Positions 46,380-61,916 of a stretch of DNA of 64,000 nucleotides are shown piece after piece. A program made the translations under genes and the position numbers. Under the pieces are notes generated by a model. That model made no database searches and was not told where the DNA came from. It was given only the letters and a program-made list of their open reading frames with translations. Source of the stretch: an uncultured Actinomycetota bacterium (lineage in GTDB: Bacteria > Actinomycetota > Actinomycetes > Mycobacteriales > Mycobacteriaceae); the NCBI GenBank assembly GCA_963707745.1, contig CAVPRG010000002.1:8833-72832 (forward strand), read 5' to 3'. Numbering within the stretch: the first letter of the stretch is position 1; each line of letters begins with the position of its first letter.

Positions 46380-47669
46380 ATGGGATTCGTGCGCGTCGCC
46401 GTCTTGTCCGTCCATACCTCGCCGTTGGCACAGCCGGGTACCGGCGACGCGGGCGGGATGAACGTCTACGTGCTGCAGAGCGCGCTCGAGCTGGCGAGCC
46501 GGGGCGTCGACGTCGAGATCTTCACCAGGGCGACGTCGTCGACCGATCCGCCGGTCGTGCGAGTCGCTCCCCGAGTGCTGGTTCGCAACGTCGTCGCTGG
46601 GCCCTTCGAAGGACTGGACAAGAACGACCTGCCCACACAGCTGTGCGCGTTCACCGCCGGAGTGCTGCGCGCCGAGGCCACCCACGAGCCGGGGTACTAC
46701 GACATCGTCCATTCGCACTACTGGCTGTCCGGTCAGGTGGGCTGGCTGGCGCGGGATCGCTGGGCCGTGCCGCTCGTCCACACGGCCCACACGCTCGCCG
46801 CGGTGAAGAACGCCACGCTGGCCGAGGGTGACTCGCCCGAGCCGCCGCTGCGGGCCGTGGGCGAGCAACAGGTGGTCGACGAGGCGGACCGGCTCATCGT
46901 GAACACCGAAGATGAAGCGCGACAACTAGTTTCGCTACATCACGCCGATTCCGACCGCATCGACGTCGTCCATCCCGGCGTCGACCTGACGACCTTCACG
47001 CCCGGCGACAAGCGCGCCGCCCGTGCTGTGCTCGGCATCGCTTCCGACGAAGACGTGGTTGCGTTCGTCGGCCGCATTCAGCCGCTCAAGGCGCCTGACG
47101 TCCTGCTGCGCGCCGCGGCGAAGCTGCCTGGCGTCCGCGTGCTGGTCGTCGGCGGTCCTTCGGGCAGCGGTCTGGCCGCGCCCGACGTGCTGGTTCGGCT
47201 CGCCGACGAATTGGGTATCTCCGACCGGGTGACGTTCCTTCCCCCGCAGCCGCGCGAGCAGCTGGCCAACGTGTACCGCGCCGCAGACCTCGTCGCGGTG
47301 CCGAGCTACTCGGAATCGTTCGGCCTCGTCGCCGTCGAGGCGCAGGCCTGTGGGACGCCGGTGGTGGCCGCCGCGGTGGGCGGGCTGCCGGTGGCGGTGC
47401 GCGACGGCGTCAGCGGGGTGTTGGTGCCCGGACACGACACCGACGAGTGGGCGGCCGCAATCGCCGGCGTGTTCGAGCGTGGGCCGGAGACCATGAGTGC
47501 CGCCGCGGTCGAGCACGCCGCGACGTTCTCCTGGTCGGCGACCGTCGATGCGCTGCTCGCCAGCTACGGTCGGGCGATAGCCGACTATCGAGCCCGCCAT
47601 CAGCAGCGGGACGTCGCGTCGCGGCGCAACGGGCGCAGGTTCTCGCTGCGGCGAGGCATCCGCGCATGA
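46380..47669 (+). CDS. mshA: D-inositol-3-phosphate glycosyltransferase (mycothiol biosynthesis)
   Basis: 429 aa with [35 protein letters not shown] and [24 protein letters not shown]. Confidence 0.95.
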
Positions 47670-48220
47670 GCGATGAGCCGCTTGCGCGAAGAGCAGACGG
47701 CCGCGATGAGGACGCAGCAGGCAGCGTCCATCGAGTCATCGAGGACACCATCAAGGAGCAGGAGCTCGACTACGCGCTCCATCCGAACGAATCCGGCGGG
47801 CTGCCGGGCATCGTCGTCGCGCTGCCGGGCGAGCGGCGTCTGGTCACCAACACGATCCTGTCCGTCAGCGCACATGGGGTGCGCGTCGAGGCGTTCATCT
47901 GCCGCAAGCCCGAGGAGAACTGCGAGGGCGTCTACCGCTACCTGCTGCGGCGCAACCGCAAGATGTACGGCCTCGCCTACACCCTCGACAACCTCGGCGA
48001 CATCTACCTCGTGGGCCGGATGTCACTGCACTCGGTCACGCCCGAGGAGCTCGACCGCATCTTCGGTCAGGTGCTCGATGCCGTCGATCGGGACTTCAAC
48101 GCGTTGCTGGAGTTGGGTTTTCGCACGTCCATCCAGAAGGAATGGAAATGGCGGGTGTCGCGCGGTGAGTCGCTGAAGAATCTGCGTGCCTTCGAGCACC
48201 TGATCGACGACGAGGAATGA
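47666..48220 (+). CDS. Conserved hypothetical protein (Rv0487-like, YbjN-type fold family)
   Basis: ATGA overlap with the mshA stop. 184 aa. Conserved position between mshA and gpm1. Confidence 0.7.
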
Positions 48221-48355: not shown

Positions 48356-49096
48356 ATGGCGACCCTTGTCTTGCTCCGTCACGGCGAGAGCGAATGGAAC
48401 GCGCTGAACCTGTTCACCGGCTGGGTCGACGTCGACCTCACCGACAAGGGCAGGACCGAAGCCGCGCGCAGCGGCGAACTGCTCGTCGAACAGGGCGTCC
48501 TACCCGACGTGCTCTACACGTCGCTGCTGCGTCGCGCCATCACCACCGCGCACCTGGCGCTGGACAAGGCCGACCGGCTGTGGATCCCCGTGCACCGCGA
48601 CTGGCGGCTCAACGAGCGGCACTACGGTGCCCTGCAGGGCCTGGACAAGGCCGAGACCAAGGCGAAGTACGGCGACGAACAGTTCATGGCGTGGCGCCGC
48701 AGCTACGACACACCACCTCCCCCGATCGACAAGGGGAGCAAGTACAGCCAGGACGCCGACCCGCGTTACGCCGACATCGGTGGCGGCCCGCTGACCGAGT
48801 GCCTGGCCGACGTGGTCACCCGGTTCGTGCCGTACTACGAACAGACCATCGTCCCGGACCTCGAAGCGGACAAGACGGTACTGATCGCCGCCCACGGCAA
48901 CTCGCTGCGCGCGCTGGTGAAGTACCTGGACGGCATGTCCGACGAGGACGTCGTCGCGCTGAACATCCCGACGGGCATCCCGCTGCGATACGACCTCGAT
49001 GCCGACCTGAAGCCCAAGGTTGCCGGCGGGGTGTACCTGGATCCGGAAGCCGCGGCGGCGGGCGCCGCAGCGGTTGCTTCGCAGGGCGCGAAGTAG
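48356..49096 (+). CDS. gpmA: 2,3-bisphosphoglycerate-dependent phosphoglycerate mutase
   Basis: [20 protein letters not shown] and [10 protein letters not shown] motifs. Confidence 0.95.
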
Positions 49097-49228
49097 CCGC
49101 GCGGGGCCCGCGCAGGCGAATTGTTGGTGAACTCGGATGAACACGGGCCAAACTCCTGGATTTGGGTATGTGACATGTCCCGAATTGGCCGCACGCTGCT
49201 GGGATGACGTTCACCGGAAACGTACGAT

Positions 49229-50419
49229 TTGCCCGTGAGTGTGCTAACCGCACTGCTGCTGACGGCAGTCGTGGCGCTGCTCGCGCTCGCGGTCGGCGGG
49301 ATACTCGGAATCGTCATCACTCCGCGCCTCGCCGAACACCGGCGGCGTCGGTCCGTGGACCAGGACGGCATCACCGTTTCGGAGATGCTGCAGCGCATCG
49401 TGTCGTTGGCTCCGGTGGGGATCGTGGTCGTCGACACCTACCGTGACGTCGTCTACACCAATGACCGGGCCCACGAGCTGGGGTTGGTCCGCGACCGCCT
49501 GCTCGACGACCGTGCCTGGACCGCGGCCGAGCGCACGCTGGCCACGGGTGAGGACGTGGAGGTCGACCTGGCCCCCGTCAAACGCCAGAATCCGGGTCGG
49601 TCCGGGCTGTCGGTGCGGGGTCACGTTCGACTGCTCACCGAGGACGATCGCCGCTTTGCCGTCGTCTACGTCGACGACCAGTCCGAACACGCCCGCATGG
49701 AGGCCACGCGCCGCGACTTCGTGGCCAACGTCAGCCACGAGCTGAAGACGCCGGTGGGCGCCATGGGGGTGCTCGCCGAGGCATTGCTCGCCTCGACCGA
49801 CGACGCCGTGACAGTCGGCCGGTTCGCCGAGATGATGGTCACCGAATCCAATCGGCTGGCCAACATGGTCGGCGAGCTCATCGAGCTGTCGCGGCTGCAG
49901 GGCGCCGAGCCGCTGCCCGACCTGGGGGCCGTCGACGTCGACACCGTGGTAGCGGAAGCCCTGTCCCGCTACAAGGTGGCCGCCGACAACGCCGACATCG
50001 CGGTCACCACCGACGCTCCGACGGGGTATCGCGTGCTCGGCGATCAGCCGCTGTTGGTCAGCGCGCTGGCAAACCTCGTCTCGAACGCAATTGCATACTC
50101 GCCCAACGGGTCTCCGGTATCGATCAGCCGGAGGAGGCGGGGAGACAACGTCGAGATCGCCGTCACCGACCGTGGTATCGGTATCGCGCGGGCCGACCAG
50201 GAGCGGGTTTTCGAACGGTTCTTCCGCGTCGACAAGGCGCGCTCCCGGGCCACCGGCGGGACCGGGCTCGGGCTGGCCATCGTGAAGCACGTGGCGGCCA
50301 ATCACAACGGATCCATCCGGCTGTGGAGTCAGCCGGGTACCGGGTCGACGTTCACTTTGTCGATACCGGCGTACCCCGACACCGACGACGAATTCGACGA
50401 ACGGTCGGATAACCAATAA
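49229..50419 (+). CDS. senX3: Sensor histidine kinase SenX3
   Basis: TM segment, PAS-like region, H-box [12 protein letters not shown], and N, G1 and G2 boxes ([23 protein letters not shown]). Followed by regX3. Confidence 0.93.
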
Positions 50420-50434
50420 GGAGGCGTCAGACCG

Positions 50435-51121
50435 ATGACCAGTGTGCTGATCGTGGAGGACGAGGAGTCCCTGGCCGATCCCCTGGCATTTCTGCTGCGC
50501 AAGGAGGGCTTCGAGGCGACGGTTGTCGCGGACGGTCCGTCGGCCTTGGCCGAATTCGAGCGCTCCGGTGCTGACATCGTGCTGCTGGATCTGATGCTGC
50601 CGGGAATGAGCGGGACCGATGTCTGTAAGCAGCTTCGTTCGCGGTCGAGTGTGCCCGTGATCATGGTCACCGCCCGCGACAGCGAGATCGACAAGGTTGT
50701 CGGGCTCGAGCTCGGTGCCGACGACTACGTCACCAAGCCGTACTCGGCGCGCGAGCTGATCGCCCGAATTCGCGCGGTGCTACGTCGCGGTGCGGACACC
50801 GACGACTCCGGCATCGGGGATGGGGTGTTGGAGGCCGGACCGGTGCGGATGGACGTCGAACGGCACATCGTTTCAGTCAATGGCGAAGCGATCACATTGC
50901 CGCTCAAGGAGTTCGACCTACTCGAGTACCTGATGCGCAATAGTGGCCGAGTGCTGACGCGGGGCCAGCTCATCGACCGGGTGTGGGGCGCCGACTACGT
51001 GGGTGACACCAAGACGCTGGACGTCCACGTCAAGCGGCTGCGCAGCAAGATCGAATCCGATCCGGCCAACCCCGTTCACCTCGTAACGGTTCGCGGGCTG
51101 GGCTACAAGCTGGAGGGCTGA
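50435..51121 (+). CDS. regX3: Response regulator RegX3 (OmpR/PhoB family)
   Basis: Receiver domain (VLIVEDEES...DIVLLDLMLPG) plus a winged-helix output domain (LTVRGLGYKLE). Confidence 0.95.
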   Translation: MTSVLIVEDEESLADPLAFLLRKEGFEATVVADGPSALAEFERSGADIVLLDLMLPGMSGTDVCKQLRSRSSVPVIMVTARDSEIDKVVGLELGADDYVTKPYSARELIARIRAVLRRGADTDDSGIGDGVLEAGPVRMDVERHIVSVNGEAITLPLKEFDLLEYLMRNSGRVLTRGQLIDRVWGADYVGDTKTLDVHVKRLRSKIESDPANPVHLVTVRGLGYKLEG

Positions 51122-51137
51122 CTCGACGACTGAGTTG

Positions 51138-51932
51138 TCACTCAGCAGCGCGCGTCGCCGGGTGGATCGCGATGAGCCCCAATGACTTTCGCCGCTCACA
51201 CATGGCCGCGAGTTCGGCGTACGCCTTCTCGCCGAGCAGCTCGGTGAGCTCGGGAGCGTAGGACTGCCACACCTGGCGCGCTCCGACATGGGCCGCGGGA
51301 TCGCCCGTGCAGTACCAGTGCAGATCTGCGCCGCCCTCACCCCAACCGCGACGGTCGTATTCGGTGATGGTGGTGCGCAGGATCTCCGACCCGTCGGGCC
51401 GGGTGATCCACTCCTGGCTGCGGCGGATGGGGAGCTGCCAGCAGACGTCGGGTTTCATGGTCAGGGGTTCGACGCCCAGCTTGAGCGCCTTGCTGTGCAG
51501 GGCGCACCCGATACCGCCCTCGAACCCCGGCCGGTTGAGGAAGATGCAGGCGCCCTTGTACTTTCGGGTCCGGTAGTTGGGTTTGCCGTCGTACTCGTCA
51601 AGCTCCAGGTAGCCCTTGCGGCCCAGTCCCTTCTCCCGGAACTGCCAGTCGTCGTCGGTCAGCTTCGTGACGGCGTCGTCGAGACGCGCTCGGTCGTCGT
51701 CGTCGGACAGGAACGCACCGTGGCTGCAGCAGCCGTCGTCGGGTCGCCCCGCGACGGTGCCCTGGCAGGCGGGCGTGCCGAAAACGCATGTCCAGCGCGA
51801 CAACAGCCACGTCAAGTCCGCGGCGATCAAGTGCTCGGGGTTGTCGGGGTCGTAGAACTCCACCCACTCCCGGGCGAAGTCCAGTTCCACCTCTCCGCGT
51901 TGGGAGTTCTTGCTCTTCCCGCTAGCGCTCAT
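51138..51932 (-). CDS. Conserved Cys-rich hypothetical protein (Rv0495c-like)
   Basis: 264 aa ([12 protein letters not shown]...GCCSHGAF...GACIFLN...GCALH). Divergent from ppx1, as in H37Rv. Confidence 0.78.
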
Positions 51933-52070
51933 CGCCGATCCCGTTCACAAAACCATTCTTGCTCTTCGCGCAAGCGCTCACGCCGCCCTTCGCTCTTCGC
52001 GCAAGCGCTCATCGCCGCCCTTCGCTCTTCGCGCAAGCGCTCATCGCGCCGATCCCGTTCACAAAAACCA
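51912..52070 (-). repeat. Tandem array (31/32-bp period) of the ATGAGCGCTTGCGCGAAGAGC cassette upstream of, and including, the Rv0495c-like start codon
   Basis: Plus-strand copies of GCTCTTCGCGCAAGCGCTCA(TC) at 51961, 51992 and 52024. The gene's own 5' end (51912-51932) matches the core at 19 of 21 positions. Flanking direct repeats GCGCTCATCGC(G)CGATCCCGTTCACAAAA(A)CC lie at 51925 and 52038. Confidence 0.9.
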
Positions 52071-52096
52071 ACGGTAGACCCGATAACGTGGGCTGC

Positions 52097-53083
52097 GTGC
52101 GATTGGGCGTGCTCGACGTGGGCAGCAACACAGTTCATCTGCTCGTGGTCGACGCGCGCCGCGGGGGTCACCCCACGCCAATGAGTTCCACGAAGGCTTC
52201 GCTGCGACTGGCGGAGGCCATCGACGGCTCCGGCAAGCTGACGCGCAAAGGCGCCGACAAGCTGATCAACACGATCGACGAATTCGCCAAGATCGCCGCG
52301 AGTTCCGGCTGTGCCGAGCTGATGGCGTTCGCCACCTCGGCCGTGCGGGACGCCACCAACTCCGAGGATGTGCTCGCCCGCGTCCGCGCCGACACCGGGG
52401 TGGCGTTGCGCGTGCTGTCGGGGGTCGACGAGTCCAGGCTGACGTTCCTTGCGGTCCGTCGCTGGTACGGGTGGAGCGCGGGTCGGATCATCAACATCGA
52501 CATCGGCGGCGGGTCGCTCGAGTTGTCCAGCGGCGTCGACGAGGAGCCAGAGATCGCGTTGTCGCTGCCGCTGGGTGCGGGCCGGCTCACCAGGGAGTGG
52601 CTGCCCGACGATCCACCGGGACGCCGCCGCGTGGCGATGCTGCGGGAATGGCTGTCCACCGAACTGGCCGACGCGGGCGCGAAGGTCTTGGAGACCGGGG
52701 TGCCCGATCTGACCGTGGCGACCTCGAAGACTTTCCGCTCGCTGGCGCGACTCACCGGCGCCGCGCCCTCCGGGGCAGGACCCCGTGTGAAGAGGACACT
52801 GACAGCTGCGGGGTTGAGGCAACTCATTGCCTTCATCTCCAGGATGACCGCGGCGGACCGAGCTGAGTTGGAAGGGGTCAGCGCTGAAAGGGCGCCACAG
52901 ATCGTGGCCGGCGCCCTGGTGGCGGAAGCGAGCATGCGAGCGCTTTCGATCGACACAGTGGACATTTGCCCGTGGGCGTTGCGGGAGGGGCTGATTTTGC
53001 GGAAACTCGACAGCGAGGCTGACGGAACTGCCTTCGTCGAGGCGTTCGCGGGCTTAGCCAGGGCCAGAGGCAACAGACCATGA
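52097..53083 (+). CDS. ppx1: Exopolyphosphatase (Ppx/GppA family)
   Basis: GTG at 52097 gives [20 protein letters not shown], the canonical Ppx N-terminus. The longer ORF from 51959 runs through the repeat array. Confidence 0.9.
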
Positions 53084-54333
53084 CAGAACCAGAAGACACC
53101 CACAGCAGCACCAGACCGATCTCGGTCGCCGAGCTGCTGGCCAGAAATGGCAGTATCGGCTCCCCACCGGTCGGAGGGCGCCGGCGCCATCGCCGGGGCA
53201 ACGCCGATTCGGTGACGGTCGCCGAACTGACCGGCGAGATCCCGATCATCAGAGACTCGACGCCCGTCGTGAAGGTCGACGAGCCGGTGCAAACAAGCGG
53301 CTCCGCCGCTGAGGCCGTCGAGCCGGTGTCGACCAACGGTGTCGCCGAGCACGTCGAATCCCTCGAGCTCGTGGAACCGGTGGAAGTCGACGAACACGTC
53401 GAAGTCGACGAACCGGTGGAAGTCGACGAACACGGTGGAAGTCGACGAACCGGTGGAGACCGATGAACCAGTCGCACCGGTCGAGGACGCGGTCGAGCAG
53501 GCCGACGTCGAGGCCGAGGTGGTCGAGGACGCGGTCGAGCAGGCCGACGTCGAGGCCGAGGAAGTCGAGGACGCGGTCGAGCAGGCCGACGTCGAGGCCG
53601 AGGTGGTCGAGGAGGCTTCCGTCACGGCGCCCGAGCCGGAGTTGACCGAAGCCGAGGTCGACTACGAAGCTCATCTCGAGCAGCGGGACGCCGAGGTCGA
53701 TCCGATCGAGTTCGCCGCCCCGCCGCGTCGCCCCCGGGTGACCCCGCCCGCGTTCTCCGCCCTCGCGGGCGGCGCCGAGCAGATGAGCCCGGATCCCGTC
53801 GTCGACGACGGTGAGATGGGGTCCGACGTCGACCTCATCGAGTCGCTCGAGGGCGAGGCGCCGCTCGCCGCCGCCGACGACGAGGAAGGCACGCAAGAGG
53901 CCTTCGTGGTTCCGTCCTACCTGCGCTCCAACTCCGACACGTTGTTCGGTGGTCAGTCCGTGGCCGACGACCTCGCCCGCCGCGGCCCGAGGCCCGGACC
54001 GGAGGACATCGACCTCGGCGAGGACGCCAGGCCGGACGTGGACGAGCCGGAGACCGTAAAAGCCCCGCGGCTCCGCCTTCATGTTGCGGCGTGTGGGTGG
54101 TCGTGCAGTGCATCCTCGCCGTCGTCTTCGGTGCGGGCTTGTTCATCGCCTTCGATCTGCTGTGGAAGTGGAACCACATCGTTGCGCTGGTGTTGTCGGT
54201 GCTCGTCATCCTCGGGCTCGTCATCGGCGTGCGCGTGGTTCGCAAGACCGAGGACATCGGCAGCACGCTCATCGCGGTGGCGGTTGGCGCCTTGGTCACA
54301 TTGGGACCCCTGGTCCTGCTGAAGACGCACTGA
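53080..54333 (+). pseudogene. Acidic-repeat membrane protein (Rv0497-like) with two compensating frame shifts
   Basis: The N-terminus ([24 protein letters not shown], frame of 53080) and the C-terminal 2-TM domain ([44 protein letters not shown], 54091..54333) share one frame. The plausible acidic middle section (ORF 53339..54322 frame, VEDAVEQADVEAE...[24 protein letters not shown]) is in another frame. Confidence 0.75.
53480..53605 (+). repeat. 3 x 42-bp coding tandem repeat (VEDAVEQADVEAEV) preceded by 18/36-bp [12 protein letters not shown] repeats
   Basis: Units start at 53480, 53522 and 53564. The shorter repeats occupy about 53371-53470. Confidence 0.9.
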
Positions 54334-54353
54334 CGCGCAAAAATAAACCCCCA

Positions 54354-55199
54354 GTGCGCCCTGCCATCAAGGTCGGTTTGTCGACAGCCTCGGTATATCC
54401 CTTGAGGACCGAGGCTGCCTTCGAGTACGCGGCGCGTCTTGGCTACGACGGCGTCGAACTCATGGTGTGGGCCGAAACGGTCAGTCAGGACGTTGCGGCG
54501 ATCACCAAACTGTCGGACGACTATGGGGTTCCGGTGCTCAGCGTGCATGCGCCGTGCCTGTTGATCTCGCAACGGGTCTGGGGTGCCAACCCCATTCCCA
54601 AACTCGAGCGCAGCGTGCGTGCCGCAGAGGAACTCGGCGCCCAGACGGTGGTGGTGCATCCGCCGTTCCGGTGGCAACGCCGGTATGCGGAGGGGTTCGC
54701 CGACCAGGTCGCCAAACTGGAGGCGTCCAGCGACGTCTTGGTCGCAGTCGAGAACATGTTTCCGTTCCGCGCGGACCGCATCTTCGGAACGGGTCAGCCG
54801 TCTATCCAGCGGATGCGCAAGCGCGGTGGGACACCCGGTGTGGCGATCTCGGCGTTCGCCCCGTCCTTCGACCCACTCGACGGGGGTCATGCCCATTTCA
54901 CACTGGACCTGTCGCATTCGGCCACCGCAGGCACCGATGCCATCGACATGGCCCGTCGGATGGGCGACGGTCTCGTCCATCTGCACCTGTGCGATGGCAG
55001 CGGAGCCTCCACCGACGAACACCTCGTCCCCGGACGCGGGACCCAGCCGACCGTCGAGATCTGTCAGATGCTCGCGGCGAATGACTTCTCCGGCCACGTC
55101 ATTCTCGAGGTGACGACGTCGCGCGCGCGGACCGCGGCCGAGCGCGAGGAGCTGCTGGTCGAATCGCTCGAGTTCGCGCGTGCCCACCTGCTGCGCTAG
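54354..55199 (+). CDS. Sugar phosphate isomerase/epimerase (xylose-isomerase-like TIM barrel, Rv0498-like)
   Basis: In-frame GTG at 54354 (VRPAIKVGLSTASVYP). Translation includes GYDGVELMVW, VVHPPF, VAVENM and LHLCDG. Confidence 0.82.
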   Translation: MRPAIKVGLSTASVYPLRTEAAFEYAARLGYDGVELMVWAETVSQDVAAITKLSDDYGVPVLSVHAPCLLISQRVWGANPIPKLERSVRAAEELGAQTVVVHPPFRWQRRYAEGFADQVAKLEASSDVLVAVENMFPFRADRIFGTGQPSIQRMRKRGGTPGVAISAFAPSFDPLDGGHAHFTLDLSHSATAGTDAIDMARRMGDGLVHLHLCDGSGASTDEHLVPGRGTQPTVEICQMLAANDFSGHVILEVTTSRARTAAEREELLVESLEFARAHLLR

Positions 55200-55272
55200 A
55201 GGACGACGATGATCGCTTGCGCGAAGAGCAGAGGATGACGATGAGCGCTTGCGCGAAGAGCAGAGGATGACG
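55200..55272 (+). repeat. 2 x 32-bp tandem cassette (AGGA(C/T)GACGATGA(T/G)CGCTTGCGCGAAGAGCAG) leading directly into the thioesterase-like gene start
   Basis: Units start at 55200 and 55232. A third, truncated unit at 55264 is the real gene's SD and start (AGGATGACGATGACC). Confidence 0.9.
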
Positions 55273-56154
55273 ATGACCGACTCCACCCGGTTCGCCGACG
55301 CGATGGCGCTGACGAGGGTTTCGTCCAACGAAGCCGTCAGCGTCTTCGAGGGCGTGCTCAACAAGCACTGGACCATCGGCGAGAAGGTGCACGGCGGCGC
55401 GATGCTGGCGTTGAGCGCCAAGGCGGCACGGACCGCGCTGTCCAGTGACGACGGCGAGGACGACCCGACTGGCGATGAGCGCTTGCGCGAAGAGCAGCTG
55501 ATCGGAATACAGCCGATCGCGGTGTCGGGCAGCTTCCTGTGGGCTCCTGACCCCGGGGCGATGAGGGTGGTATGCACGGTGCGCAAGCGGGGGCGGCGGG
55601 TGAGCCTGGTCGACGTCGAACTCGGTCAGGGCGGGAAGACCGCCGTGCGGTCGGTGATGACCTTGGCCGACCCGGAACACGACGTCGCGCCCCTGCTGTC
55701 GGTGAATCCGGTGGTGGCGCTGATGACACCCGATCCGCCGCCTGGGCTGGAGCCGATCGGCCCCGGACATCCGATGGCCGACATCGTGCACCTCGCGCAC
55801 GGGTGCGACATCCGGCCGTCACTGACGACGATGGCCCCGCGTGCTGACGGCGGTCCGCCCGTAATCGAATATTGGGTGCGCCCGCGGGAGGGCTCACCGG
55901 ACGTCTTGTTCGCGTTGTTGTGCGGCGACGTCTCGGCTCCGGTGACGTTCGGCGTCAACCGGTTTGGCTGGGCGCCGACGGTTCAGCTGACGGCCTACCT
56001 TCGCGGCATACCTGCCGACGGTTGGTTGCGAGTGATGTGCACCACGATGCAGATCGGCCAAGACTGGTTCGACGAGGACCACCTCGTCGTGGATTGCGAG
56101 GGCCGCATCATCGTGCAGTCCCGCCAACTCGCATTGGTGCCGCCCGCGCCGTAG
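55267..56154 (+). CDS. Thioesterase-like superfamily protein (double hotdog, TesB-like, Rv0499-like)
   Basis: Start MTMTDSTRFADAM. Translation includes GVLNKHWTIGEKVHGGAMLAL. It carries an in-frame copy of the repeat cassette at 55456-55497. Confidence 0.8.
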   Translation: MTMTDSTRFADAMALTRVSSNEAVSVFEGVLNKHWTIGEKVHGGAMLALSAKAARTALSSDDGEDDPTGDERLREEQLIGIQPIAVSGSFLWAPDPGAMRVVCTVRKRGRRVSLVDVELGQGGKTAVRSVMTLADPEHDVAPLLSVNPVVALMTPDPPPGLEPIGPGHPMADIVHLAHGCDIRPSLTTMAPRADGGPPVIEYWVRPREGSPDVLFALLCGDVSAPVTFGVNRFGWAPTVQLTAYLRGIPADGWLRVMCTTMQIGQDWFDEDHLVVDCEGRIIVQSRQLALVPPAP

Positions 56155-56181
56155 CGAATCCGGACGTGCAATGCTTGCCCC

Positions 56182-57048
56182 GTGGCCAGAATTGCGATCA
56201 TCGGAGGCGGAAGCATAGGCGAGGCATTGCTTTCCGGACTGCTGCGCGCAGGGCGTCAGACCAAGGACTTGGTGGTCGCCGAGAAGGACCCCAACCGGTC
56301 GAGGTACCTGGCCGAGACCTACTCGGTACTGATGACTTCGGTCGCCGACGCCGCCGAGAATGCCACCTACATCGTCGTCGCAGTCAAGCCTGCAGACGTC
56401 GAGTCGGCGCTCATCGACATCGCCGAAGCCGCCGCGCGCGCCGAGAACTCCAGCGCAGAACAGGTTTTCATCACCGTGGCGGCGGGGGTCAGCACGGCCT
56501 ACTACGAATCGAAGCTTCCTGCGGGGGCGCCGGTCGTCCGCGTCATGCCCAACGCTCCCGTCGTCGTCGGTGGAGGAGTCAGCGCGCTTGCGCGCGGGCG
56601 CTTCGCGACGGAGCAGCAGCTCAAGGAGGTGGCGGCGATCTTCGACGCGGTCGGTGGGGTCCTGACGGTGCCCGAGTCCCAACTCGACGCCGTCACCGCC
56701 GTGTCCGGCTCGGGTCCCGCCTACTTCTTCCTGATGGTCGAGGCGCTCGTCGACGCCGGGGTCGCGGCGGGGCTGCCTCGCGGGGTGGCCACGGATCTGG
56801 TGACTCAGACGATGGCCGGTTCGGCGGCGATGTTGCTGGAACGCCTCGACGAGCAGCACGTGGCAGGAGACGCAGCAATTGGTTCGGCCACGGATACCAG
56901 CGCGGCGCAGTTGCGCGCCATCGTCACGTCGCCCGGTGGCACCACCGCCGCTGGGCTGCGGGAACTCGAGCGGGGTGGCCTGCGCGCGGCGGTGGCCGAT
57001 GCGGTGGCCGCCGCAAAAACACGCTCTGAGCAGCTAGGAATTACATAA
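56182..57048 (+). CDS. proC: Pyrroline-5-carboxylate reductase
   Basis: IAIIGGGSIGEA, MPNAPVVVGGGVSAL, SGSGPAYFFLMVEAL and VTSPGGTTAAGL motifs. Confidence 0.95.
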   Translation: MARIAIIGGGSIGEALLSGLLRAGRQTKDLVVAEKDPNRSRYLAETYSVLMTSVADAAENATYIVVAVKPADVESALIDIAEAAARAENSSAEQVFITVAAGVSTAYYESKLPAGAPVVRVMPNAPVVVGGGVSALARGRFATEQQLKEVAAIFDAVGGVLTVPESQLDAVTAVSGSGPAYFFLMVEALVDAGVAAGLPRGVATDLVTQTMAGSAAMLLERLDEQHVAGDAAIGSATDTSAAQLRAIVTSPGGTTAAGLRELERGGLRAAVADAVAAAKTRSEQLGIT

Positions 57049-61651: not shown

Positions 61652-61694
61652 GTATCAACAGTAGGTCACGGAATACTGGTCGCAGATGGGCACT

Positions 61695-61916
61695 CGGCGG
61701 GCAGGAGCGTAGCGACATGGGGAACCAGCATCGGCGGGCAGGAGCGTAGCGACATGGGGAACCAGCATCGGCGGGCAGGAGCGTAGCGACATGGGGAACC
61801 AGCATCGGCGGGCAGGAGCGTAGCGACATGGGGAACCAGCTTCGGCGGGCAGGAGCGTAGCGACATGGGGAACCAGCTTCGGCGGGCAGGAGCGTAGCGA
61901 CATGGGGAACCAGCAC
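61695..61916 (+). repeat. 6 x 37-bp perfect-period tandem repeat. Each unit is an SD + ATG + 10-codon mini-ORF, and the last unit supplies the start of the glutaredoxin-like gene
   Basis: Units of CGGCGGGCAGGAGCGTAGCGACATGGGGAACCAGC(AT/TT/AC) start at 61695, 61732, 61769, 61806, 61843 and 61880. Confidence 0.95.

Follow-up and report, generated by a model that had tools for sequence, protein, structure and literature searches.

A dispersed 32-bp actinobacterial repeat that probably behaves like a MIRU forms a copy-number-variable array at the start of a mycobacterial Rv0495c-like gene

The start of the Rv0495c-like gene in the 64-kb stretch of DNA analyzed here (the window) is preceded by tandem copies of a short repeat that occurs elsewhere in the window and in many other genomes. 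In our view, the array is probably a local cluster, variable in copy number, of a 32-bp repeat that is dispersed in actinobacteria, acts in the manner of a MIRU (mycobacterial interspersed repetitive unit), and is relay-translated into the gene. The repeat family is new, but the kind to which it belongs, the MIRU minisatellites, is already known, and the mechanism is not new.

On the minus strand, three tandem units of 32 or 31 bp lie at 52045-51961, upstream of the Rv0495c-like gene. The first-pass annotation had described three copies of a core and a fourth, with two mismatches, formed by the gene's own 5' end, and our searches found all four. The core, GATGAGCGCTTGCGCGAAGAGC, matches without mismatch at 52024-52045 and 51992-52013, with two mismatches that amount to loss of the A of the ATG at 51961-51982, and with two mismatches at the gene's 5' end (51912-51933). 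Seven core matches occur in the window, compared with 0.00 expected from 100 shuffles, and TRF reports a repeat at 51961-52047 with a period of 32, 2.8 copies, 98% matches, and a score of 167. The array and the gene are made up as follows.

52047 to 52066, minus strand: native 5' segment TTTTGTGAACGGGATCGGCG, copy 1 of a 20-bp direct repeat; aligns with empty sites
52014 to 52045, minus strand: unit 1, core at 52045-52024 and SD-like spacer GAAGGGCGGC
51982 to 52013, minus strand: unit 2, 32 bp, identical to unit 1
51953 to 51981, minus strand: unit 3, a 21-nt core without the A of its ATG (51981-51961) and AAGAATGG
51933 to 51952, minus strand: copy 2 of the 20-bp native segment, directly 5' of the gene's ATG, without a strong SD
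51912 to 51933, minus strand: degenerate fourth core, two mismatches, supplying ATG 51932 and codons 1-7 (MSASGKS)
52009 to 52044, minus strand: mini-ORF 1, MSACAKSEGRR, whose TGA (52011-52009) overlaps ATG 52012 as ATGA
51929 to 52012, minus strand: mini-ORF 2, 27 aa, ending ...EWFCERDRR, whose TGA (51931-51929) overlaps ATG 51932 as ATGA
51138 to 51932, minus strand: Rv0495c-like gene (DUF3109, PF11307), 264 aa

The family of the Rv0495c-like protein comes from a precomputed PF11307 assignment, on which we relied when a Pfam hmmscan returned no family. The direct repeat flanking the array had been put at about 30 bp. It exists, but the exact match is 20 bp (51933-51952 and 52047-52066); about 25-30 bp is reached only with single-base gaps, and the second coordinate is 52037 rather than 52038. 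The core-to-core spacing of 49 bp indicates local duplication of the native 5' segment together with one unit.

Each unit is a portable cassette of SD-like sequence, ATG, and in-phase TGA. Because the unit length of 32 is 2 mod 3, its 11-codon ORF stops at a TGA overlapping the ATG that follows, so that ORF plus stop comes to 36, or 32 + 4. The ATGA-linked chain of mini-ORFs ending on the gene's ATG had been noticed earlier and is present as described, including the passage of mini-ORF 2 through the third unit, which lacks the A of its ATG. ATG 51932 appears to be derived from the element and has no good SD of its own; no other in-frame start precedes the conserved GEVELDF block.

No inverted repeats were found in or around the units, the minimum free energy of the array RNA fold did not fall below that of shuffled sequences (z = +0.73), and the sole Rfam match in 49000-57000 was a sub-threshold M23 at 53127-53178 (E = 0.45), outside the array. 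On these grounds we set aside REP-like, riboswitch-like, and terminator-like readings; a "terminator-like" match at 51974-51958 is simply the core pairing with AAGAA, and the count of such matches is similar to that in shuffles. A RegX3 site was also rejected, since the duplicated segment has one TGTGA only (the published motif is GGTGCcaactGGTGA; bioRxiv 10.1101/400960).

A search for the core showed that it is not private to this locus. The window holds four loci in total: the core recurs on the plus strand at 55208, 55240, and 55474 and, with a 1-nt insertion, at 47671.

55207 to 55272, plus strand: second array, two units, spacer AGAGGATGAC, between an AP-endonuclease-like gene and a thioesterase gene (ATG 55273)
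55474 to 55495, plus strand: core inside the thioesterase CDS, read as DERLREEQ, in an 18-aa insertion relative to M. novocastrense
47671 to 47705, plus strand: single 33-nt unit (core with the 1-nt insertion) at a GT4 stop/YbjN-like start junction

All three of these sites are empty in M. novocastrense. The equivalent of the second array is unrelated spacer DNA, and the junction equivalent to 47671 is a plain GTGA, whereas the unit in the window has ATGA on both sides and is in frame with the downstream gene. A PDB search with the thioesterase did not cover the insertion region, and it was the M. novocastrense orthologue that settled the insertion.

Beyond the window, other genomes from dozens of species, mostly environmental Mycobacterium/Mycolicibacterium, carry the core in more than 117 stretches; 65 of these stretches carry the name Mycobacterium, Mycolicibacterium, or other Mycobacteriales, and several other genomes show more than one locus. 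There are one to five tandem copies per stretch, and the 51 spacings measured are 32 bp in 44 cases, 33 bp in 6, and 35 bp in 1. The core is also found in Jatrophihabitans, Nakamurella, and Frankiales MAGs, as the 3' module of a unit of about 83 nt. A blastn search for carriage of the element on phages or plasmids gave no match, and a literature search found the core sequence in no paper.

The element usually sits between the TGA of an upstream gene and the ATG of a downstream gene. Among the 65 named-mycobacterial arrays, 45 chain through -4 overlaps directly into a long, high-GC3 ORF, and in 38 an upstream long ORF ends in the first (T)GATGA. A control that allowed internal starts was too lax, counting 20% of random short ORFs as "chained," and was replaced by a stricter test in which 23 of 60 arrays chained, compared with 201 of 3,451 random short ORFs (odds ratio 10, p = 3e-13). 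The commonest flank orientation among about 101 family arrays is co-oriented (39); 23 are divergent-upstream, and some are antisense or convergent. The Rv0495c-like locus has the divergent-upstream context and is not intercistronic. Between about a quarter and a third of the family's arrays either fail to chain into a gene or are antisense to the gene downstream. An SD-like 4-mer was present in 60 of 150 spacers by a crude test.

Could the array instead have been born from the gene's own 5' end, as the first-pass annotation proposed? A purely local tandem duplication of the start region, unrelated to the other loci, is supported by the 20-bp native segment on either side of the array and by the 49-bp spacing. 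However, the identical 22-nt core lies at three other loci in the window and throughout the stretches described above, the array copies equal the family consensus exactly and the gene's own copy is the diverged one, and orthologues at empty sites lack the MSASGKSK N-terminus. We therefore regard a purely local origin as quite unlikely. As the sole origin, local duplication is contradicted by the dispersal of the repeat; it can stand only as a secondary event that followed insertion, and the part of the earlier claim that holds is that a duplication took in native 5' sequence. The same three observations (array copies at consensus, diverged gene copy, and array-less orthologues without MSASGKSK) indicate, as far as sequence comparison can tell, that the element donated the start codon to the gene and not the reverse.

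What did the locus look like before the element arrived? The following features on its upstream side bear on this question.

52060 to 52062, minus strand: ancestral GTG, probably leaderless, now opening a 17-aa ORF (MNGIGAMSACAKSEGRR) that runs into unit 1
52071 to 52076, minus strand: -10-like hexamer TACCGT, separated from the ancestral GTG by 8 nt; putative promoter of the Rv0495c-like gene
52097 to 53083, plus strand: divergent ppx1 (Ppx-GppA), GTG start preceded by TAACGT (52084-52089) and 7 nt

The arrangement TA(C/A)CGT-N7-8-GTG is present in the window and at seven other orthologous loci, which represent six further lineages (L122, L123, L127/128, L129, L130, and L131); it is conserved in all eight lineages compared. 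The start of the Rv0495c-like gene has no array in M. novocastrense and six other orthologous loci, all seven that were examined, and the GTG equivalent to 52062 is the annotated start of the M. porcinum, M. adipatum, and M. saskatchewanense orthologues. In the window, this GTG no longer shares the gene's reading frame. A sigma-70 promoter scan gave no matches, and we relied instead on the conserved TANNNT-N7-8-GTG. Its conservation at empty sites suggests a leaderless ancestral start, and the gene probably began at GTG 52062.

The array had also been said to occupy the promoter region shared by the two divergent genes. Both conserved -10-like hexamers (52071-52076 and 52084-52089) lie within the native 34 bp between the ancestral start codons and thus outside the array, which is downstream of the minus-strand gene's ancestral GTG; what stands is that the array lies between about -52 and -136, counted from the ppx1 GTG. 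The minus strand has no TA dinucleotide from 52062 to 51932, and hence there is no TANNNT inside the array. Separately, gene callers give ppx as 300 aa or 331 aa on two nearly identical contigs.

These observations fit the following model for our preferred reading, a dispersed, MIRU-like element. The unit comprises an invariant 22-nt core containing an ATG and a purine-rich, often SD-like spacer of about 10 nt, and at most loci it would sit at the start of a gene or exactly at the RTGA junction between genes of like orientation. The insertion would be tolerated at such places because ribosomes that stop at the upstream TGA are passed along the mini-ORFs to the start downstream. The ancestral Rv0495c-like gene would have had TACCGT, 8 nt, and then a leaderless GTG at 52062, and the element may have inserted about 17 nt into this ORF. 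A 49-bp piece consisting of the native 5' segment and one unit would then have been duplicated, followed by expansion of the 32-bp unit. Transcription would still start at the native promoter, and the array would be co-transcribed with the gene, for which the lack of a TANNNT inside it is indirect support. Translation may begin at GTG 52062, at the unit ATGs, or at both, and would be relayed to ATG 51932 by termination-reinitiation at the ATGA overlaps.

The array varies between strains. Contigs of the same species are 98.6-99.6% identical to the window, and the inter-strain length polymorphism for which the first-pass annotation had called is seen among them: three units in the window, four in L001 and L002, and at least four in L003 and L004. 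The unit lacking the A of its ATG also occurs in L002/L132, L003, and L004 and is intact in L001/L133. In each of the three full-length alleles, ORFs follow one another without a gap between the ancestral GTG and the gene's ATG. This relay is unbroken in the window and in L002; in L001 the last mini-ORF ends 8-10 nt past the gene's ATG and overlaps it by 11 nt instead of 4, so the exact -4 coupling is not conserved.

One might therefore ask whether the array is an expression rheostat or contingency locus, in which unit number or indels are selected for tuning how the Rv0495c-like redox gene is translated or how ppx1 is transcribed. This locus is the only one of the four in the window that differs between strains of the species (the other three show no variation), the last ORF meets the gene's ATG differently from allele to allele, and the array starts about 52 bp upstream of the ppx1 start. 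On the other hand, unit changes leave the main reading frame unaffected and the relay remains continuous in each of the three alleles, which gives no sign of an on/off switch. Moreover, some indels may be long-read assembly errors, as L133 shows 20 gap openings in 10.9 kb against the window. Selection of this kind is unlikely, in our view, though less so than a purely local origin.

A more radical doubt is that mis-assembly of a repeat created the array or its copy number. The short-read contigs L003 and L004 break inside the array, and the three-unit allele was found in no other assembly examined. Metagenome scans for this allele and for the locus-specific right junction gave no matches, but the JGI contigs L003 and L004 have that junction, so the collection evidently lacks them and the scans are uninformative. 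Four independent assemblies nevertheless agree on the array, its site, and its flanks, although not on the copy number of three, so the uncertainty concerns copy number only and an artifact is very improbable.

It is equally improbable that the array encodes functional micropeptides or amino-acid-sensing attenuators such as cysteine-responsive uORFs. Every unit peptide does contain one Cys (MSACAKS...), but one such residue does not make a poly-Cys sensor. What is conserved is the nucleotide sequence, with variants at the three codon positions numbering 14, 9, and 15 and thus without third-codon bias; the C-termini of the peptides differ between loci with the spacer. The absence of third-codon bias, together with the reading of the core in another frame inside the thioesterase CDS, argues that selection is not on the peptide.

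The closest known systems are the MIRUs (Supply et al. 1997, as summarized in PMC12548453, PMC3184786, and PMC3914561), direct repeats of about 40-100 bp (46-101 bp in H37Rv) that insert at start codons with -4 coupling (PMC12548453) and show tetranucleotide direct repeats and empty and filled sites (PMC3184786). MIRU292 of MAP is 53 bp, and its ORF plus stop is 57, or 53 + 4 (PMC7977185). The element described here shares with MIRUs short tandem direct repeats that are dispersed and lie in sense orientation at gene starts or intercistronic junctions, a unit ORF whose start and stop overlap those of its neighbors as ATGA, a unit length of 2 mod 3 (32 here and 53 for MAP MIRU292) with an ORF plus stop of unit + 4, filled and empty sites with ATGA duplicated at both ends (the 47671 locus), and copy-number variation from strain to strain. 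It differs in that its units of 32-33 bp fall below the 40-100 bp of MIRUs and in its range, which consists chiefly of environmental fast growers and extends beyond Mycobacterium. At the Rv0495c-like locus, moreover, the array lies inside the first codons of a divergent, apparently leaderless gene and not between cistrons, is flanked by a 20-bp rather than a 4-bp duplication, and appears to donate the start codon. The 32-bp unit aligns to MAP MIRU292 with a local score of 21, which was reached by 75 of 2,000 shuffles and is not significant; the 5' module of the longer, core-carrying composite does somewhat better (2-27 of 500 shuffles in eight of nine cases).

Mycobacteria are enriched in leaderless small ORFs with RTGA coupling (Shell et al. 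2015, PMC4633059). The locus resembles these in having a short ORF, probably from the transcript's first GTG, whose TGA overlaps the annotated ATG, and in keeping the coupling while the peptide sequence is unconstrained. In contrast, the coupled ORFs here are made of a repeat that can move or expand, and two or three of them are chained together; the leaderless start is deduced from the conserved TANNNT-N7-8-GTG. Like REP/BIME and MITE sequences, the element is small, non-autonomous, dispersed, and intergenic. Unlike REP/BIME, it has no palindrome and folds no better than shuffles; unlike MITEs, it has no terminal inverted repeats; and unlike both, it is strongly tied to reading-frame phase.

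The 22-nt core is the same in dozens of mycobacterial species. Why is it so strictly conserved? A tentative idea, which we think rather unlikely, is that the core is an active cis-signal, serving either as a portable reinitiation module or as the site recognized by a mobilizing activity directed at RTGA junctions. If it were a reinitiation module, a leaderless gene could become relay-translated, with copy number tuning its output. Arrays of this family break short-read assemblies and mislead start-codon annotation. With its invariant core and simple 32-bp units, the family offers clean material for the question of how MIRUs spread and are tolerated. There are many pairs of filled and empty sites in fast-growing, culturable species, among them M. 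vanbaalenii, M. parafortuitum, and M. iranicum, and the family includes a case in which an element appears to have entered a probably leaderless ORF and replaced its start codon and N-terminus. Thus, the idea that MIRUs survive by preserving translational coupling becomes directly testable.

The 32-bp units between the Rv0495c-like gene (DUF3109; minus strand, 51932-51138, 264 aa) and the divergent ppx1 (plus strand, 52097-53083) are built on a 22-nt, ATG-containing core followed by a spacer. Read on the minus strand, the array has the order TTTTGTGAACGGGATCGGCG-c-(GATGAGCGCTTGCGCGAAGAGC GAAGGGCGGC)x2-(G-TGAGCGCTTGCGCGAAGAGC AAGAATGG)-TTTTGTGAACGGGATCGGCG-ATGAGCGCTaGCGgGAAGAGC..., and Tandem Repeats Finder (TRF) gave it a score of 167 with a period of 32 and 2.8 copies. 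Across the whole window we found 7 core matches against 0 expected.

Core copies and units in the window
52024-52045 and 51992-52013, minus strand: perfect core copies, from the core search
51961-51982, minus strand: core with two mismatches, the A of its ATG lost, from the core search
51912-51933, minus strand: core with two mismatches that is the start of the Rv0495c-like gene, from the core search
55208 and 55240, plus strand: cores of a two-unit 32-bp array between the AP-endonuclease-like and thioesterase genes
55474, plus strand: single core within the thioesterase coding sequence (55273-56154)
47671, plus strand: core with a 1-nt insertion at the glycosyltransferase stop/YbjN-like start junction
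47667-47708, plus strand: the single 33-nt unit at that junction, its core with one extra C, lying between the glycosyltransferase TGA (47667-47669) and the YbjN-like gene

Core search, TRF and translation agreed with the first-pass annotation on the repeats and on a chain of mini-ORFs, one coordinate being off by one base. On the minus strand, ATG 52044 gives MSACAKSEGRR, whose TGA overlaps ATG 52012; this second ATG opens a 27-aa ORF that spans the A-less third unit, and the TGA of that ORF overlaps the Rv0495c-like ATG 51932. A 20-bp exact direct repeat flanks the array. A REP-, MITE- or CRISPR-like identity was rejected because the array contains no inverted repeats and its RNA fold does not exceed that of shuffled sequences (z = +0.73). 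The array also has no match in Rfam.

What did this start region look like before the array? Orthologous loci were obtained through homologues of the Rv0495c-like protein, and the array was absent from every one fetched. All of them have TA(C/A)CGT, 7-8 variable nt, a GTG, a few codons and then a conserved GEVELDF block, with 5-11 codons from GTG to GEVELDF in the species compared. Annotations of M. porcinum (MTDVHPGEVELDF), M. adipatum and M. saskatchewanense place the start codon at this GTG. A TANNNT-type hexamer directly against an RTG, with no space for a Shine-Dalgarno (SD) sequence, is the mycobacterial signature of leaderless genes (PMC4633059), and from this layout we infer that the ancestral Rv0495c-like gene was probably leaderless. 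The other strand mirrors the arrangement at ppx1 (TAACGT at 52084-52089, 7 nt, GTG 52097). The two ancestral start codons are only 34 bp apart, and this native interval contains both -10-like hexamers.

In the window the native sequence reads TACCGT-N8-GTG AAC GGG ATC GGC and is then interrupted; alignment to the empty sites restarts about 140-150 nt on, just before GGA GAG GTG. The inserted DNA comprises three units, a second 20-bp native segment and the degenerate fourth core. Since the insertion, no in-frame start other than ATG 51932 lies upstream of GEVELDF, and the N-terminus is unique among homologues, so the element gave the gene its start codon and first residues.

Did the array arise from the gene beside it? 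The first-pass annotation had read it as a tandem duplication of the gene's own 5' region. Part of this reading holds: the 49 bp between cores 3 and 4 consist of TGG, the 20-bp native segment, 21 nt of core from its ATG and AAGAA, and therefore reflect a secondary local duplication. As an account of origin it fails, since the core is dispersed and the element supplied the gene start. An exact-match scan with one genome per species found the core in at least 117 stretches of other genomes. Among the matches listed, 65 stretches are from named Mycobacterium, Mycolicibacterium or other Mycobacteriales (including M. vanbaalenii, parafortuitum, iranicum, houstonense, canariasense, litorale and novocastrense), many more are from Actinomycetota MAGs, and a few are from Jatrophihabitans, Nakamurella and Frankiales. 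Chance or mis-binning appears to explain isolated matches in unrelated phyla. The core was absent from the phage and plasmid collections searched, and its sequence appears in no searchable paper. The family consensus among the matches listed is gGC-GATGAGCGCTTGCGCGAAGAGC-AGAgGGCacC-GATG; arrays there hold one (67 arrays), two (23), three (6), four (4) or five (1) copies, spaced at 32 (44), 33 (6) or 35 (1) nt.

Empty sites were also found for the other window loci. At the GT4/YbjN junction M. novocastrense has nothing but GTGA, and the window has ATGA-gc-[33-nt unit]-GATGA. The 33-nt length of the unit keeps ATG 47673 in the reading frame of the original ATG 47706, so the YbjN-like protein could gain 11 residues. 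In M. novocastrense the AP-endonuclease/thioesterase spacer is occupied by unrelated DNA, and the thioesterase there lacks the 18 residues (GEDDPTGDERLREEQLIG) that hold the in-frame core in the window (within 55420-55530, plus strand). The element was therefore gained in a lineage-specific manner at all four window loci. In the thioesterase of L132, a same-species contig, a 1-nt deletion 8 nt past the core leaves ORFs of 96 and 197 aa with a 4-nt overlap; this split could be genuine or an error of long-read assembly. Elsewhere, several species share certain filled loci at differing copy numbers (fetched loci L026 versus L116, L028 versus L077, and L005 versus L100), a pattern that indicates older insertions followed by copy-number change.

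An identical Rv0495c-like protein is encoded on four other contigs. Two long contigs that share 98.6-99.6% identity with the window across 10-20 kb carry four units each, and two short-read contigs stop within the array after at least four. The length polymorphism between strains that the first-pass annotation proposed to look for is thus present, with three units in the window. Independent assemblies reproduced the array at this site and not its three units: that allele was found neither in other assemblies nor in a metagenome collection that evidently lacks the known junction contigs L003 and L004 (the two short-read contigs). The array is therefore real and variable, and its exact length here is unconfirmed. 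Its A-less last unit is shared by four assemblies (the window, long contig L002, L003 and L004), the intact form occurs only in long contig L001, and an extra CG following the first native segment is peculiar to the window. The three strains show no difference at the other three family loci of the window.

How is such an insertion tolerated? The window's GTG 52062 starts the ORF MNGIGAMSACAKSEGRR, which terminates on ATG 52012; the ORF begun there terminates on ATG 51932. L002 has four units, the last A-less; a 27-aa GTG ORF spans units 1-2 and hands over at an ATGA to a second 27-aa ORF that ends on the gene's ATG. The four intact units of L001 give a chain of 27, 11 and 19 aa, the last ORF reaching a TAG 8-10 nt beyond the gene's ATG. 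The region from old to new start is therefore fully covered by ORFs in all three alleles, and exact -4 coupling to the Rv0495c-like gene is not universal among them. The 16 nt upstream of ATG 51932 are copied former coding sequence without a good SD, and TA dinucleotides, and with them any TANNNT, are absent from the 131 nt that separate 52062 from 51932. These absences favor a route in which the gene would be transcribed from its native promoter and ATG 51932 would be used by termination-reinitiation. Translational coupling, itself inferred, is the best-supported explanation.

The same phasing is seen across the family. For 65 arrays from named mycobacteria among the matches listed, we started at the ATG of the first unit and followed the chain of successive -4 overlaps toward a high-GC3 ORF of 80 codons or more. 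The chain entered such an ORF directly, or ran off the locus end still open, in 45 of the 65; the TGA of the first (T)GATGA was the stop of an upstream long ORF in 38, and 28 showed both. Under a stricter definition (ATG/GTG only, coupled start no more than 150 nt from the in-frame stop), chaining was found in 23/60 arrays among the matches listed versus 201/3451 random short ORFs (odds ratio 10, p = 3e-13). Among the same matches the downstream gene is co-oriented in about two-thirds of arrays, a bias that is not absolute, and about 23/101 have a divergent upstream neighbor, as at the Rv0495c-like locus. Variant cores differ mostly in the central TT of GCGC-TT-GCGC. Because variant positions show no third-codon bias (14/9/15 by codon position) and the thioesterase reads the core as DERLREEQ, it is the nucleotide sequence, not the peptide, that is conserved.

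The window holds other repeats. Six tandem 37-bp units (TCGGCGGGCAGGAGCGTAGCGACATGGGGAACCAGCA; 61694-61915, plus strand) lie immediately 5' of a glutaredoxin-like gene (MGNQHSVILLTRAGCGLCD), each repeating GGAG, 9 nt, and the ATG and first four codons of that gene; they form 10-aa mini-ORFs whose TAG lies 4 nt ahead of the next ATG. The 37-bp unit had no exact match among 126 loci and belongs to a different sequence family from the core; L132 has a similar array. At 53374-53613 (plus strand), nested 18/36-bp and 42-bp tandem repeats (TRF 154 and 256) sit in ORFs between ppx1 and the AP-endonuclease-like gene (e.g. 53339-54322), where relatives encode an Rv0497_C-domain protein, and encode acidic stretches (VEVDEPVE..., AVEQADVEAE...). 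Same-species contigs align there at only 82-83% with many gaps, and the comparison suggests that these repeats vary in length. Automatic ppx calls on the nearly identical L001 and L002 are 300 and 331 aa; the longer extends into the array, and the conserved GTG gives 328 aa. Evidently the array disturbs start-codon annotation on both strands.

Mycobacterial interspersed repetitive units (MIRUs) were reportedly first described, by Supply in 1997, in the senX3-regX3 intercistronic gap of M. tuberculosis. Here that gap (50420-50434) is 15 nt and repeat-free, and in M. novocastrense the genes overlap by 4 nt. MIRUs are 40-100 bp repeats at 40-50 loci, with ORF ends that overlap flanking genes, tetranucleotide direct repeats, and empty and filled sites (PMC3184786; PMC3914561), and their insertion at start codons with -4 spacing disturbs expression little (PMC12548453). 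The arithmetic of our unit matches that of the 53-bp MAP MIRU292 (PMC7977185): the ORF including its stop is 57 = 53 + 4 there and 36 = 32 + 4 here. Sequence similarity to MIRU292 is weak (its score was reached by 75/2000 shuffles), our unit is shorter than classical MIRUs, and homology to them is uncertain.

Outside Mycobacterium, in Jatrophihabitans, Nakamurella, Frankiales and other Actinomycetota MAGs, the core makes up the 3' module of a longer repeat unit (about 83 nt), at fetched loci L006, L012, L022, L029, L071, L073, L075, L089 and L112. Its layout is ATGAGCGAGCATCGCAGCGAGG..GAGCGAGGAGCGGAGCGAAT..-core-..ATGA, its length counted from the sequences is 2 mod 3, and its ORF, as read in L012, is ATGA-phased. 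The 5' module bears a weak but recurrent likeness to MIRU292 (2-27/500 shuffles in 8/9 cases), somewhat better than that of the 32-bp unit, which hints at a possible modular superfamily.

Altogether, the feature is a MIRU-type minisatellite whose family appears to be undescribed. The element entered a probably leaderless gene within its first codons, donated a start codon and N-terminus, and kept the ORF relay unbroken. The class would be familiar to mycobacterial genomicists. Strict conservation of the 22-nt core across genera, together with clean empty/filled pairs, makes this family a good system for questions about how MIRU-like elements move and are tolerated.
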